From positions 5,732 to 69,731 of the forward strand of contig CANRPI010000002.1 of assembly GCA_947632475.1 (NCBI GenBank): a stretch of DNA of 64,000 nt, given 5' to 3'. Made by a program: the position numbers. How positions within the stretch are numbered: position 1 is the first letter of the stretch; each line of letters begins with the position of its first letter. Shown piece after piece: positions 9,001-15,000 of the stretch. The DNA is from an uncultured Clostridia bacterium. GTDB taxonomy: Bacteria > Bacillota > Clostridia > TANB77 > CAG-508.

Positions 9001-12000
9001 TAATATAAAAAGTATATATTTCCATTTGCTCCAATTGTCTATTTTCTTATTTAACTTTTCCCTTTTATCTTCAAATAAAAATCCTATATAAAAATAAACC
9101 AAATATGTAAGTATGTTTTTTACTAAGACAATATTTATTGAAGAGCTTATAATATTCAAGCATATTAGTATTATTAATAATAAAGTTTTCTTTATTGTGG
9201 CAAATTGCTGTAATCCGCTTCGTTGTATATATATATATATATATGAAATAACAAAAATACAAAATAATGTTGGTAAAAACCATAAATGAGTAATACCTTG
9301 TTGTAATACTTGTCCAACAAAAATGTCCTTAAATAAATTAGTTGATTGACTATAGTATCCAGACATATATTTGATTGGTATTAAATATATGACAGTAACT
9401 ATAAAAAAAGGTATTAATAGAGATTTTCCTTTTTTTATAACTAATTCCTTTAAAGTTTTATATTTATTATTATTTAATGAATTTTTAAATAGAGCCCCAC
9501 TTAATGCTATAAATAATGGCATATGAAAAGTGTATAAAAATTTACTTAAACTTTTGAATCCTATATAAAAAAACTTGCTACTAAAAGTCATTATATTTAT
9601 ATTTGGTTCAAAATTGATGTCTCCATAGTCATTAGCTATTTTGTAGTATGAACAATGTGATATGAGTACTGCTATAACCGCAATAACTCTAATAAGATCA
9701 TATTCTAGTATTTTTTTATTTTTTTTTATATTTTTTACCATTATATTTATCATCCTTTTTACTATATTATTATCTTCAATGAATATTAAATAATTCTTTA
9801 TTATTTATAAAATATTCTTTCATAGCAGTATTTTGTTGTCTAAAAGCTAAATGTCCAACAATTGCATTATTAGAAACTATCATAGCCCTACTTTTAAATA
9901 AACAATATTCACAAAGTTGTTTTTCATCATTTCCCATATCTGTTTTTTTAGTTACTTTAAAAAATTCCATGTTTTCCCATATCTCTCTTGTAAATAAAAT
10001 AGCTCCTATACTAAACCTAATTGGGCAAATTTGGTATCCAAATTTATCTTTTTTTACTATTTTATTCATTTCATCTATATTAGGTAGGTATCCATTACCC
10101 CCCCAAAAAAATTGGGCTGCTTTTGGTTCTTTCTCTAGCATTCTAGTATCATCGAGTGCATAAATAGGTTTTTCAAAATTTTTTTCATAGATATCTAACA
10201 ATCCAAATCTTTTAAGTATATTCATATGTCCAAAACCATTTATTGGTATAGTTGGAGCAATAAATCCTATTCTATACTCTCCATTTTCTCTACACTTTTC
10301 ATAAGTTTTCATTAATGTTTCAAAATAACCATCTGTTACAAATATATCTTCATCTAATTTATATATAAATTCTGCACTCTTAAAAAGATTAATTGCAATG
10401 TTTTGAATTAAAGAAACATTATTTCTTTTTGTACTTAAATAAGACCAATTATTTTGTTTTGCTATTTTAGATAATTTTTCACTATATTTTCCGCTTGATA
10501 ATATACATACATCTATATCATTTGGTATGAATTTTTTTATTCTTAAAAAAACAATATCCCATAAAAACTCTTTATATCCTGCAAGAATTATACAAACTTT
10601 ATTATTTTTTTTCATTCTATTTTCAAATTTGTATTTTTTTGTTAAATTTCTTTTTTTATTGAAATTAGTTCTCATTTCTTTTACTTTATCCAACATATCT
10701 AATTTTTCTAAAATTCTTCTAATAATATTCTTCAAATTCATCCTTATAAATTCCTTTCATTTAATATCTTCTTTTACAGTATTTAATGCTCTATCTATCA
10801 CTTTATCCATATCATAATATTTATATTGTCCTAATCTTCCCCCAAAAATAACTTTTTTATCTTTACTTGCAAGTTCAAAATATTTCTGATATAAATCATT
10901 ATTTTTTTTATCATTTATTGGATAATATGGTTCTTTTTCTCTTGTCCACTTATCTGAATATTCTTTTGATATTACAGTCTTTGTTCCTGTTCCAAATTCG
11001 AAATGTTTATGTTCAATTATTCTTGTATATGGCACTTCATATTCTGTATAATTAACAACTGCATTTCCTTGATAATTTTCTTTATCTAATATTTCTGTTT
11101 CAAATCGTACACTTCTATATTCTAGCTCTCCAAAACAATAATTATAATATTGGTCTATAGGCCCTGTAAATATTATTTTTTCAGCAATATTATCTAGTTC
11201 TTTTTTATTTTTAAAATAATTATAGTTTAGTTTCACTTCAATACCTTTTAACATTTTTTCTATAATTTGAGTATATCCTCCTATTGGAATTCCTTGATAT
11301 AAGTCATTAAAATAGTTATTGTCATAAGTAAAACGAACGGGTAATCTTTTTATTATGAAATTTGGTAATTCTGTTGCTCTTTTTCCCCATTGTTTTTCAG
11401 TATATCCTTTTACTAGTTTTTCATATATTGTTTTACCTACTAATTTTATAGCCTGTTCTTCTAAATTTTTTGGCTCTGCTATATTTGCTTCTCTTAATTC
11501 TTCTTCAATTTTCGCTTTAGCTTCATCTGGAGTAATCACTCCCCATATTTTATTAAAAGTATTCATATTAAATGGCATATTGTATACTTCATTTTTATAT
11601 CTAGCTATTGGAGAGTTTGTATAACGGTTAAATTCTGCAAATTGATTTATATAATTCCATATTTCTTTATTACTCGTATGAAATATATGTGCTCCATATT
11701 TATGAACATTTATTCCTTCTATATTTTCTGTATATATATTTCCTCCTATATGATTTCTCTTGTCTATTACTAAGCATTTCTTTCCTTTTTTACTCACTTC
11801 ATATGCAAATACTGCTCCAAATAGTCCCGCTCCTACTATTAAATAATCATATTTATACAAAAAATCACCTTCTTTTTTAATTTTTTTAATATATAATGTT
11901 TTATATTTTGCAATATACTGTTTCAATTTCTAATTCTTCAATTCTTTTTTTTATATCATTTATTTTAATATCCTCTATTTCTTTAAATATAGGCATTTGT

Positions 12001-15000
12001 TTTCCTAATGTTTTATATTTTCTTTCTGCTAATCTATGTATTTTAAATATTTCAACTCTTATAGGTTTATATTTAGTTAAAAAATCATATATTTTTTCTA
12101 GATTTTTATCAGTTGTTGTATAATCTGGAACTAATGGAATTCTAAAAATTACTTTACAATTATTCTTAAAAATTGTCCTTATATTTTTTAAGTATATATC
12201 TATATTTCCATTTATTTTATAAACATTATCTCTATCTAAAATTTTAATATCTATTATAAATTCATCTACATATTTTATTGCAATATTTACATATTTCTCT
12301 AATACCATCAAAGATGTTTCTACACATATATTGATTTTTTGTTCTTTTAGATTTTTTAATAAATTTTCTATTTTTTCAAATTGTAATAGACAATCTCCTC
12401 CTGAAAATGTAACTCCTCCATTATTTATGTAAAATTGCTTATCTTTAAGTATTTCTTTTTCTAGTTCTTCTAAAGTAATTTCATATCCATACTTGTTAAT
12501 TTCACCATCTTCAATAAATTCTTGTATCTTAAAATCTATATTTTCTGGATTGGAACACCATGGACATCTTAAATTGCAACCTTTTAAAAATATTGTAGTC
12601 CTTATTCCAGGTCCATCTTGTAAGCAAAATCTTTGAATATTACTAATTAAGATTCTATCTTTTTTCACTTTGTAAGGCCCTTTCTATTAAATTGTCTTTA
12701 TAGCTATCTGGTAAATCATTAAAATATGCACTGAATCCCCAAACTCTAACTATTAAATTTGGAAATTTTTCTGGATCTTTTCTTGCTTCTATCAAAGTTT
12801 TACTACTTACTACATTCATTTGCATTTCAAAAAATCCATTTTTTACGCTTAATAATAAAAAATCTACAAATTTATCAAAATTGTTTTCAATGAAACTTGG
12901 TGAAACCATAAAATCTACCACATTTCCGTTAAACCTATTCTCTCCATAATCTAGTTTTGCTGCAAATTGCATTAATTCAGTATATGCATTTGATGTATCT
13001 GAAGATATATGAACTGCAAATGCTTCTCCTATTTTTCTTCCATCAAAAGATGCCGGAAAGTTTTCAGATGCTACTATATAGTTTGGTGAACTTAAACCAA
13101 ATTTATAACTTCCTCCTAATGAGTTTGTAAAATTACTCATAAGTTGAGTAGTATATCTAATAATATCATTTGTTATTCCTATAACTAAATCGTTATCTGT
13201 TCCATACTTTAATTTTTCATTTTTTAATTTATTTAACAATTTCTCATTATTTATAAAATTATTCTTTCTAATTTCATTAATTTCATTAAATTTATATTGT
13301 TTATTTTTAAATACCATTAATTCTAAGTTTATTAATGAATTAATTAAATTTGGCAGTCCAACTCCTGTAAATCCATAATTATTATATATAGCCCCTCCAT
13401 TTGCTAAATCTTTATTATTTTTTATACAATCTTCTATGAATAAAGAAAGTAATGGATCTTTTTGCCATTTAATTTTTTTTGTTTTTTTAATAAAAACATT
13501 TATATATTTCTCTAAATGGATTTTATATTTTTCTATTAATTGTTGAATATTTTCTATTTCTTCTAGTTTTTCTTTCCTCAATAAAGTATCTAAAGGTTCA
13601 ATAAAATTTATTGATTTTATATTATTTTGATCTAGAGATTTTCCTATTATATATGGCTCCCAGCATGCTGATGTTCCATAATTATATGCATCTTCTTTTT
13701 TATAACCAAATTTTATTAGCTTATCTATAATTACATCATCATTTGCAAATAATGGACAACCTATTCCAGTTTGAATACATCTTAGAGACTTTTCCATTAA
13801 ACTTTTTGGCATATTAGAACTAACTCTTAATAAAATTTTTGGGTCTGGCAATTGCAACTCTTGCATTAATTCTATAATTATATAAGTTAATTCGTTATAT
13901 ATATATTTGCCTTTAACATCTTTTCCACCTAATTCTATAATTTGTCCTGTATCTCCTAATAAAATATTACTCTTAAATTTATAATATTTATGTAGTGTAA
14001 TTAAAAACTGTTTAAGTAATTGCCTTGCTTCATTTTTACTAATGATTCCTCTTTCTATATCATTTTTGTAATATGAAATTAATATCATATCAAGTCTTCC
14101 TAAGCCATTTAATCCATGATATGTTTGCCATAATAATTGATTAAAAAATAATATTCTTTGTAAAGCTTCATAAAAAGTTTGAGCCTTTTTATCTTTAATA
14201 TTTTTAATATTATTTATCAATTGTTTATTCAAATTCATTTTATTGAATTTATTTACTATTCTATCAATTAATATTTCTATCCCCTCTATCACATTTATCT
14301 CATCAGTATAAAATTTCTTATCTTGTTTATTTTGTTCAAGTAATTTTTTGAAATCTAATAATGAATTGTTTAATATGATATTATAATCTATAGACAAATT
14401 ACCTATATTTGAGTATGTAAATTTAAATAAATCTATGTTAAAATAAAATTTATCTTTTTCATCAATATTTCCCAATGTTATTTTAGTAAATAATTTTTTT
14501 ATATTTTTTCCTTTATATATTTTAGCTTTAAATATATATTTAATCATTTCTATTATCTTTCTATTGTTTCTATTTAATTTACTATATATCTCTATTTTTA
14601 GTCGCATATTTTTAGTCATTATCTTCATAATTACCTTTTTTATCATTTTAATCATATATTTTTTTTATTCTCCTATCTTTTATCTTATTAAAAACATCAA
14701 TTAACATTTTATCTTTTAATATTATTAGCATTATTCCATAAGTCATTATTCCTATGACTACTTGTATTATTGTGCTCATAATTGTTGATTTTAAGAAATA
14801 TCCTATACTAAATGTTATAGCAAACATAACTATTCCACTAAATAAATACTTTCCTCCTCCTTTATATACACTTCTTATTGGAATATCTTTTCTAATGTCT
14901 ATTAATTGCACAATTAGTATTAATAATTCTGCTAATGCTGAAGCCACTATTGCTCCAATTGATTTAAATAATGGAATTAAAATCATATTAATTGTAAAAT

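Follow-up and report, generated by a model that had tools for sequence, protein, structure and literature searches.

What is a glycyl radical enzyme (GRE) doing inside an operon for surface polysaccharide assembly? The question is raised by a stretch of 64,000 nucleotides (nt) from an uncultured Clostridia bacterium (assembly GCA_947632475.1, contig CANRPI010000002.1, positions 5,732 to 69,731), hereafter the window. In it, genes for a GRE of 666 amino acids (aa) (12655-14655, minus strand) and for a 255-aa radical S-adenosylmethionine (SAM) activase (11901-12668, minus strand) lie between those for a Wzx flippase (14648-16120, minus strand; Polysacc_synt, 4e-33) and UDP-galactopyranose mutase, Glf (10757-11926, minus strand; TIGR00031, 430 bits, cutoff 304). 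A review of June 2026 describes GREs in ribonucleotide reduction, fermentative or catabolic eliminations, decarboxylations and hydrocarbon activation, and no glycan-biosynthetic GRE (PMC13450708); no published account of a GRE in a glycan locus was found in full-text searches of the literature. The reading favoured here, with a probability of about 50%, is that the two genes form a portable glycan-tailoring cassette, in which an active GRE and a minimal activase carry out radical chemistry on galactofuranose (Galf) close to the membrane.

An earlier note on this stretch had taken the protein for a genuine GRE of the C-x-E type with an activase of its own, and the open reading frames (ORFs) found between flippase and mutase bear this out. 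The product matched the Pfam domains PFL-like (PF02901, E 3.6e-79) and Gly_radical (PF01228, E 9e-12), and translation placed the thiyl (cysteine) loop SACWEP, with C331 and E333, at 13654-13671 and the glycyl radical motif RVWGFSAYF, with G640, at 12721-12747, both on the minus strand. The reading depended on these motifs being conserved under alignment, and in 78 family members of 40-66% identity both were invariant (C331, W332, E333 and P334; R637, V638, G640, F641 and S642), together with the polar residues Q166, R167, K228, D235, Q238, Y251, K273, N345, Y424, S522, Y526 and D581. A CXE motif characterises the eliminases and isomerases among GREs (PMC13450708, sections 5.6-5.7). An AlphaFold2 (AF2) model of the protein (predicted local distance difference test score, pLDDT, 86; predicted template-modelling score, pTM, 0.88) was matched by Foldseek to more than 40 GRE structures at a template-modelling (TM) score of about 0.8 and 20-26% identity, with PflD first and propanediol dehydratase (PD) and glycerol dehydratase (GDH) next. 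Profile-to-PDB scores were 265 bits for PflD, 244 for GDH, 235 for PD, 218 for CutC and 213 for HypD. The GRE and its activase would almost certainly form an active pair.

The protein had also been described as shorter than typical GREs and as a possible subfamily of its own, and both points held. Its PFL-like match covers the 647-position profile only from position 98, so that the protein lacks about 100 residues that ordinary GREs have at the N-terminus, and the solved GRE relatives have 765-850 aa, against about 650-685 aa in the whole short family. No NCBIfam equivalog cutoff was reached: the best model was TIGR01774, a generic PFL2-3 subfamily (289 bits, cutoff 678), and the named GRE equivalogs (GDH/PFL2-3, PflD, HypD, CutC, HpfG/HpsG, IAD, HPAD and PFL) gave best scores of 289, 239, 223, 184 and 183 bits, where the cutoffs lie at 678-1150. 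A protein search returned at least 120 clusters (90% identity) above 700 bits, all of 650-685 aa, and a profile search of 1.84 billion representatives returned about 100 clusters (50% identity) carrying 'SACWEP ... RVWGFS'. A tblastn search of plasmids and phages yielded PflD-like matches only, at 25-29% identity, and the closest relatives of the source organism were uncultured low-GC Clostridia metagenome-assembled genomes (MAGs) from rabbit gut. Judged by sequence, the short SACWEP/RVWGFS proteins are a distinct, uncharacterised GRE family.

The activase contains the CX3CX2C motif for the [4Fe-4S] cluster and SAM (CNLRCPWC, 12555-12578, minus strand) and matched Radical_SAM and Fer4_12. It scored 204 bits with TIGR02494 (cutoff 174), in two stretches flanking a missing insert, and 133 bits with the PflA model TIGR02493 (cutoff 232). 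Among 70 activases of the family, with a median length of 256 aa, CX3CX2C was present in all 70 and the ferredoxin-type CX2CX2CX3C in none. The enzyme is thus predicted to be a radical SAM domain only, without a ferredoxin-like auxiliary-cluster domain. Among GRE-activating enzymes, only those of PFL and ribonucleotide reductase (RNR) are known to lack such a domain (PMC13450708, section 2.1).

Three overlaps with neighbouring genes had been reported, and two of them stood: the wzx and GRE ORFs share 8 nt, with the GRE N-terminus kept in homologues, and the GRE and activase ORFs share 14 nt, with a GTG start. The third, a 26-nt overlap of activase and glf, hinges on an unconfirmed TTG start. 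No terminator-like site was found on the coding strand at 6900-24000.

The company that these genes keep was examined in a scan that took a single genome from each GTDB species, in which 286 stretches encoded a relative of the GRE. Eighty of these loci were analysed, with ORFs called de novo and clustered, and 37 of them, which extend 8 kb or more to either side, are termed fully flanked. The hosts were uncultured Clostridia, Bacilli, Tenericutes, Lachnospiraceae, Oscillospiraceae, Eggerthellaceae and Muribaculaceae, an Aeromonadales MAG, the spirochaete Breznakiella and 14 Methanobrevibacter MAGs. Glycan genes were recognised in 73 of the 75 evaluable loci, with no catabolic locus among them, and none of the GRE loci examined had a context of microcompartment, aldehyde dehydrogenase or catabolic transporter genes. 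The activase was present in 76 of the 80 loci, including all 37 fully flanked ones, and a homologous Wzx (43-65% identity) adjoined the GRE in 51-57. Other recurrent genes encoded glycosyltransferases (GTs) of the GT2 family (36 loci), DUF4422 (at least 25) and the cluster c8 described below (17-19), short-chain dehydrogenase/reductase (SDR) or epimerase proteins (21) and LicD (about 6). The membership in glycan assembly that the earlier note had proposed for the window therefore extends across several bacterial phyla and Methanobrevibacter, and the alternative that it had set out, under which homologues would sit in catabolic or microcompartment operons and a single strain would have the gene in a glycan locus, fails on the 73 of 75 loci. 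The GRE and activase are very probably dedicated to the synthesis or tailoring of surface glycans.

Three gene orders corresponded to three GRE clades: WZX>GRE>AE>(c8)>GLF, GRE>WZX>AE and c11>GRE>AE, in which AE is the activase. Loci that had at first looked ambiguous also proved to be glycan loci; the one from Eggerthellaceae had the order DUF4422-GRE-AE. The Methanobrevibacter GREs were monophyletic and nested inside a low-GC bacterial clade, which indicates one transfer from bacteria to archaea. Mirror-tree correlations with the GRE were 0.84 for the activase, 0.71 for Glf and 0.57 for Wzx, values that are inseparable from shared ancestry. In the Lachnospiraceae clade with the order c11>GRE>AE (L055, L057, L058, L071 and L074), a 141-aa Rossmann-like protein precedes the GRE. 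The GRE is followed there by large proteins with an N-terminal region without assignment and a cytidylyltransferase-like domain, and also by xylose-isomerase-like TIM-barrel proteins bearing the same small Rossmann-like domain. Another Lachnospiraceae locus with the GRE cassette (L060) has two more radical SAM genes (5842-6990 and 16501-17751), one with a SPASM domain.

The space between wzx and glf was compared in loci with and without the GRE, the latter coming from a Wzx-anchored metagenome scan (loci L081-L160). In these loci the Wzx subfamily of the window was almost always directly beside glf, with or without a GRE. The GRE was present in 9 of the 41 informative loci of this subfamily (47-62% identity). 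Since this Wzx is mostly without a GRE but beside Glf, it travels with Glf, and the GRE and activase are optional; this lineage of flippases may have specialised in repeat units that contain Galf. The idea of a flippase dedicated to the GRE was rejected on the same counts, the subfamily tracking Glf.

Closely related loci differed at this slot. One locus (L123) has the order WZX-c8-GLF, and six others (L018, L020, L124 and L126-128) have WZX-GRE-AE-GLF, with flanks 88-90% identical to it through wzx and 93-99% identical in glf; in these six, 2.85 kb of GRE and activase stand in place of c8. A third state, WZX-GRE-AE-c8-GLF (L011, L012 and L015), has flanks 79% and 83% identical to L123, in which 34 bp separate the matched blocks. 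The upstream glycosyltransferases were unchanged across all three allelic states. In GRE-less loci the slot was filled by Acyl_transf_3 O-acyltransferases or c8, or was empty, and in two loci (L022 and L085) an acyltransferase gene stood between GRE and activase. The GRE and activase behave as a self-contained 2.8-kb cassette, like a tailoring gene, and the cassette needs no dedicated transferase or reductase.

The c8 gene, which in the window lies downstream of glf (321 aa, 9776-10741, minus strand), had no match in Pfam, NCBIfam or PDB sequences. An AF2 model built from database homologues (pLDDT 93.7) had only GT-A glycosyltransferases among its top Foldseek matches, and the residues D130-E131-D132 were invariant, so that c8 is apparently an unclassified GT family. 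The family, whose gene neighbours glf and wzx, has about 900 homologues in the databases. As a functional analogue of the GRE and activase, c8 was rejected, because it is a GT-A glycosyltransferase and co-occurs with the GRE in many loci.

Natural fusions bear on where the enzyme works. The representative search returned GT2-GRE fusions of 987-992 aa (P0259, P0260 and P0278) and Wzx-GRE fusions of 1125 aa (P0306) and 1053 aa (P0333). The 90% identity cluster of P0259 has 146 members, its 988-aa form occurring on dozens of contigs from independent sources, and each of the two Wzx-GRE clusters has three full-length members; with multiple independent members, the fusions are not assembly artefacts. 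Both catalytic motifs, Cys and Gly, are intact in all, and each fusion gene is directly followed by an activase gene. The GT2 domain of P0259 is 36% identical (E 4e-47) to the GT2 glycosyltransferase of the window (17261-18196, minus strand; Glycos_transf_2), and the best NCBIfam model for both was GlfT1, at 75-80 bits, with the next-best at 37-47 and the cutoff of 330 not reached. The GT2-GRE fusions sit in wall-polysaccharide loci of the ABC-transporter type with LytR_cpsA_psr, sortase, Glf or Rml genes; the GRE family is accordingly not tied to the Wzx/Wzy pathway as such. Genes for pyruvyl transferases and FrhB adjoin the GT2-GRE fusions and were considered as partners of the GRE, and were rejected since similar genes occur in GRE-less loci. 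Some polysaccharide pyruvyl transferases were themselves fused to ferredoxin and FrhB-like (F420-hydrogenase beta-like) domains (L162, 13809-16421; L164, 8576-9871 and 13826-14956), and another radical SAM gene, whose product has a Radical_SAM_C domain, lay downstream of a Wzx-GRE fusion and its activase (L161, 5252-6160).

Which sugar might be the target is suggested by the recurrence of Galf genes. Glf was found in 46 of the 80 loci and in 26 of the 37 fully flanked ones. DUF4422 has the GT111 galactofuranosyltransferase fold, according to a paper that cites work on Klebsiella WbbM (PMC12269835). With GT111/DUF4422 counted beside Glf, 31 of the fully flanked loci had a marker, and with GlfT1-like GT2 proteins 36 had one. 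The association was seen also in Methanobrevibacter, whose Wzx is unrelated (22-24% identity), and in the ABC-transporter loci, and a distant GRE of a sister clade (about 310 bits) is followed by two GT111 genes. Genes for other precursors were much rarer (of the 80 loci, Rml in about 5, UDP-glucose dehydrogenase in 6 and IspD in about 10). CDP-ribitol or ribitol-5-phosphate, which the earlier note had listed as candidate substrates, are unlikely as a general target on that last count. In the window itself no GT111 gene was found; its Glf scored above the equivalog cutoff and its transferase is just GlfT1-like (80 versus 330 bits). The balance tips slightly towards Galf as the target of the GRE.

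The active site was mapped by aligning the family to GDH and PflD, by sequence only. C331 and E333 align with C433 and E435 of GDH and with C431 and E433 of PflD. The position of GDH H164 and PflD H169 is N86 (99% conserved), and the pair H446-D447 of GDH, H444-D445 of PflD, is N344-N345 (95% and 100% conserved). GDH S282 and Y339 correspond to L182 and G237, and Y640 to a gap in the short family. GDH H164 has been described as protonating the leaving hydroxyl (PMC13450708). Residues conserved specifically in the family are the cationic R167, K273 and K518 and also H180, D235, Y251, Y526, H549 and D581, and K228 is conserved where GDH and PflD have Arg. This set would be compatible with an anionic, phosphate-bearing substrate.

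Gene identity, conserved motifs, glycan-locus context, cassette behaviour, fusions and the link with Galf genes are observations; what the enzyme acts on, which bond it breaks and when it acts are inferred as follows. Under anoxia, the [4Fe-4S] cluster of the activase and SAM would put a radical on Gly640, from which it would move to Cys331. The thiyl of Cys331 would take hydrogen from a hydroxyl-bearing carbon of the sugar, Glu333 would deprotonate the hydroxyl on that carbon, the vicinal C-O substituent would depart in a 1,2-elimination, and Cys331-SH would give the hydrogen back. The exocyclic C5-C6 diol of Galf would mimic glycerol or propanediol, and a deoxy-keto or deoxy-aldehydo sugar would result, with no need for a cosubstrate or partner enzyme. 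The favoured stage would be the lipid-linked unit on the cytoplasmic side, after the GlfT1-like or GT111 transferase and before Wzx; the other possible stage would be UDP-Galf just before transfer. That the reaction is an elimination is put a little below even odds, and action at the lipid-linked stage is more tentative.

Several observations weigh against this reading. The equation of DUF4422 with GT111 would hold at the level of the family, and the GlfT1-like label falls far under the curated cutoff (80 versus 330 bits). The count of 36 of 37 comes with no background frequency of Glf for comparable loci, 11 of the 37 fully flanked loci are without glf within 10 kb, and one locus (L030) is without any Galf marker. 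The Wzx subfamily goes with Glf and in most cases has no GRE, so that synteny by descent could account for some of the Glf association. Furthermore, Asn replaces the His at the general-acid position of GDH, PD, HypD, PflD and YbiW as well as the His-Asp pair, and with Asn86 and Asn344-Asn345 in these places the classical diol-dehydratase mechanism is not guaranteed. The earlier note had expected a deoxy or keto sugar; no conserved reductase to carry a keto product on to a deoxy sugar was found in the loci, and a keto or aldehyde product left as such would be unusual in a finished polysaccharide.

These points bear differently on the alternatives. The enzyme might be a soluble radical dehydratase of UDP-Galf or another nucleoside diphosphate (NDP) sugar, giving a keto-deoxy NDP-sugar on which a non-conserved reductase acts before an ordinary GT adds a deoxy sugar (6-deoxy- or 5-deoxy-hexofuranose). 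The immediate neighbourhood of glf and the GRE and activase in many loci, the SDR or epimerase genes in 21 loci and the GT2 fusions, which could channel a modified donor, would all suit such an enzyme. The mutase equilibrium is unfavourable towards UDP-Galf, and irreversible use of UDP-Galf would pull it; a precedent is AprD4/AprD3, a radical SAM diol dehydratase and reductase in sugar biosynthesis. We nevertheless consider this somewhat unlikely, as the presence of the GRE is tracked by no reductase, the lipid-linked stage is indicated by the fusions of the GRE to Wzx, and the slot is common to post-assembly decorators such as Acyl_transf_3 proteins. Moreover, the cassette is gained and lost at about 90% DNA identity with unchanged GTs, so that the same transferases would have to take both donors. 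The target might instead be not Galf but a different terminal vicinal diol or amino-alcohol of the repeat unit, for instance in a heptose or nonulosonate side chain, an amino sugar, or a substituent of glycerol phosphate or ribitol phosphate, with the Glf link reflecting ancestry of the locus type. The 11 fully flanked loci without nearby glf and the link of the Wzx subfamily to Glf even without the GRE leave room for this; so do the c11>GRE>AE clade, which travels with cytidylyltransferase-domain and sugar-isomerase-like genes and not with Wzx and Glf, and the IspD-like and LicD polyol-phosphate module of the window, while loss of the general-acid His would be in keeping with a leaving group that can depart unprotonated, for example phosphate or ammonium. 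It is unlikely, given that IspD-type genes occur in about 10 and LicD in about 6 of the 80 loci, that Galf markers are still found where the neighbours are unrelated, in the archaeal, ABC-transporter and sister-clade loci, and that the GT fused to the GRE is GlfT1-like.

A change of reaction type has also to be considered. A redox-neutral isomerase or epimerase as in PflD, YbiW and HplG, acting on, say, C5 of Galf and releasing no water, would agree with the closest solved relative by sequence and fold, which is the isomerase PflD, with the Asn residues found in place of the acid/base residues for water loss, and with a self-contained cassette, since an isomer requires neither reductase nor cosubstrate. 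The score of PflD (265 bits) is, however, barely above those of GDH (244) and PD (235), no second hydrogen-donor Cys is conserved for epimerisation, and ring opening of the PflD type beside an anomeric carbon with a glycosidic or phosphate substituent would, on chemical reasoning, destroy the glycoside; an isomerase is judged quite unlikely. Reductive deoxygenation (OH to H) with formate or a dithiol as reductant, in the manner of class III RNR, would produce a stable deoxy sugar in one step without a reductase gene, and RNR is the sole known anabolic GRE precedent (PMC13450708, section 5.2). The fold and motifs are those of the PFL2/eliminase type and not of NrdD, though, and the loci have no thioredoxin or formate-related gene in common. 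As candidates for an RNR-like second cysteine, C293, C300 and C410 were invariant in 28 close homologues and not conserved in the 78 sequences, so no extra family-wide cysteine exists, which argues against dithiol chemistry. The analogy with class III RNR drawn in the earlier note thus found no support, and this chemistry is very improbable. Finally, every earlier characterised PFL-like GRE is catabolic (PMC13450708) and some sister-clade members lie in sugar-catabolic contexts, as would be expected if an unrelated catabolic operon had landed by chance in a glycan locus. That account is effectively refuted by the glycan genes in 73 of 75 evaluable loci, by the existence of the Wzx and GT2 fusions and by the overlap of the genes with wzx and, putatively, glf.

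The remainder of the window shows the operon around the cassette. The G+C content is about 25%, and nearly all genes up to about 53 kb are on the minus strand, as are all those given below. Upstream of the Wzx gene, which forms the upstream border of the slot as glf forms the downstream border, Pfam matches identified an initiating phosphoglycosyl transferase (Bac_transf, 22493-23212), a GT1 glycosyltransferase (21289-22416), LicD (20465-21292) and two further GT1 glycosyltransferases (18156-19319 and 16124-17242); a multi-transmembrane hydrophobic protein of 374 aa without a Pfam match (19294-20418) is a Wzy candidate. With an initiating transferase, three GT1 proteins, a GT2 protein and Wzx in one operon, this is probably a locus of the Wzx/Wzy type. 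Downstream of c8 are an Acyl_transf_3 O-acyltransferase for glycan decoration (8614-9753; Pfam, 1.1e-34) and a polyol-phosphate activation module of an IspD/TarI-like cytidylyltransferase and a frameshifted SDR (7185-8576). In the SDR (7185-7887), the ORF at 7258-7887 has an aberrant tail and the normal C-terminus is found in another frame (7185-7352), which reflects either a pseudogene or a sequencing error in this module.

Directly downstream of the glycan locus, a 729-aa homologue of thiol-activated (cholesterol-dependent) cytolysins that is extended at the C-terminus by about 250 aa is encoded (4788-6977), and farther on an endolysin-like GH25 muramidase with a CW_7 repeat (3243-4004). Immediately upstream of the initiating transferase, genes for a TnpB/Cas12f-like protein (weak TNB-domain match) and a tyrosine integrase (23381-25638) delimit the locus upstream and suggest that mobile DNA adjoins it. 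Two adjacent paralogous ORFs of 318 and 168 aa without a Pfam match (25923-27405) have near-identical C-terminal halves (...DETEAWxQLxxxYF...TGELxQxLAKKELFM). Nothing in the window matched Rfam.

What is new here is the biological role in which a known type of radical enzyme is found, together with the shortness of the enzyme, the remodelled active site, the minimal activase and the fusions. If the favoured reading is true, GREs gain an anabolic role in the cell envelope, and the capsules or wall polysaccharides of gut microbes, which are immunologically relevant, probably gain a new sugar modification: a deoxy-keto or deoxy-aldehydo furanose on the surface of gut anaerobes and Methanobrevibacter that could not be made under oxygen. 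Capsules would then have a structure dependent on anoxia, since the glycyl radical does not survive oxygen. The system is tractable: it consists of two genes, the activase is small and has no auxiliary clusters, and isogenic loci with and without the cassette occur naturally. The Wzx and GT2 fusions suggest where the GRE works. The Methanobrevibacter clade documents the transfer of a glycan-tailoring radical enzyme from bacteria to archaea; all characterised PFL-like GREs are bacterial (PMC13450708). The most specific form of the proposal, a first GRE in cell-surface polymer biosynthesis that performs a membrane-proximal radical elimination on the exocyclic diol of lipid-linked Galf, is in some organisms joined to Wzx or to a galactofuranosyl transferase, and is the first functionally placed archaeal PFL-like GRE, is considered less likely than not.

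Sister groups of the family also have C-W-E and RVWG motifs. In one uncharacterised group of short GREs with the motifs VAACWEF and RVWGWS (L165, L168, L172 and L174), the neighbours were variously sugar transporters of the MFS type with an aldose epimerase (mutarotase), a gene resembling GH127 beta-L-arabinofuranosidase, an Fe-alcohol dehydrogenase with NagA/NagB and, in one case, two GT111 genes. An Fe-alcohol dehydrogenase is expected beside an aldehyde-forming dehydratase. From these contexts, a handful of short contigs, the wider C-W-E/RVWG clade appears to be directed at sugars.

Among known systems, PflD/YbiW (PDB 8ID0, 8YJO and 8ID7) was the best match (265 bits, TM 0.80, 25-26% identity). 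It has the CXE and Gly motifs in common with the short family, similar lengths of the active-site loops, no GDH-type insertions at Y339 or D447, and a carbohydrate-derived substrate: it acts on hexitol phosphate, converting 1,5-anhydromannitol-6-phosphate or 1,5-anhydroglucitol-6-phosphate to 1-deoxyfructose-6-phosphate. It differs in serving catabolic 'anhydroglycolysis', in its 765-810 aa and in keeping His169 and His444-Asp445, whereas the short family is found in glycan loci and has about 100 N-terminal residues fewer; the GRE of the window scored 239 bits with the PflD equivalog, against a cutoff of 1109. GDH (1R8W/1R9D) and PD (5I2G) share the PFL2-type fold (TM 0.79) and the C-x-E-P loop, and they catalyse radical 1,2-elimination from a vicinal diol, chemically the same motif as the exocyclic diol of Galf. 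However, H164, S282, Y339, D447 and Y640 of GDH are not kept in the short family, whose loci lack the aldehyde dehydrogenase, reductase and microcompartment context and whose activase lacks the ferredoxin domain. PflA and the class III RNR activase likewise consist of the radical SAM domain only, but the activase here is PFL2-type by sequence, as if the insert had been deleted.

On the side of sugar biosynthesis, AprD4 and DesII perform radical SAM 1,2-elimination on a sugar during deoxysugar biosynthesis, with SAM consumed or recycled at the active site, and act on NDP-sugars or aminoglycosides with a reductase; the short family would instead use a catalytic protein radical and has no conserved reductase. 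In genetic behaviour, the cassette resembles the tailoring enzymes of Wzx/Wzy loci (Acyl_transf_3 O-acetyltransferases, pyruvyl transferases and side-chain GTs), which occupy the same wzx-glf slot with the same presence/absence polymorphism and without dedicated partner genes. These enzymes belong to other protein families with other chemistry, whereas that of the GRE is radical and strictly anaerobic.

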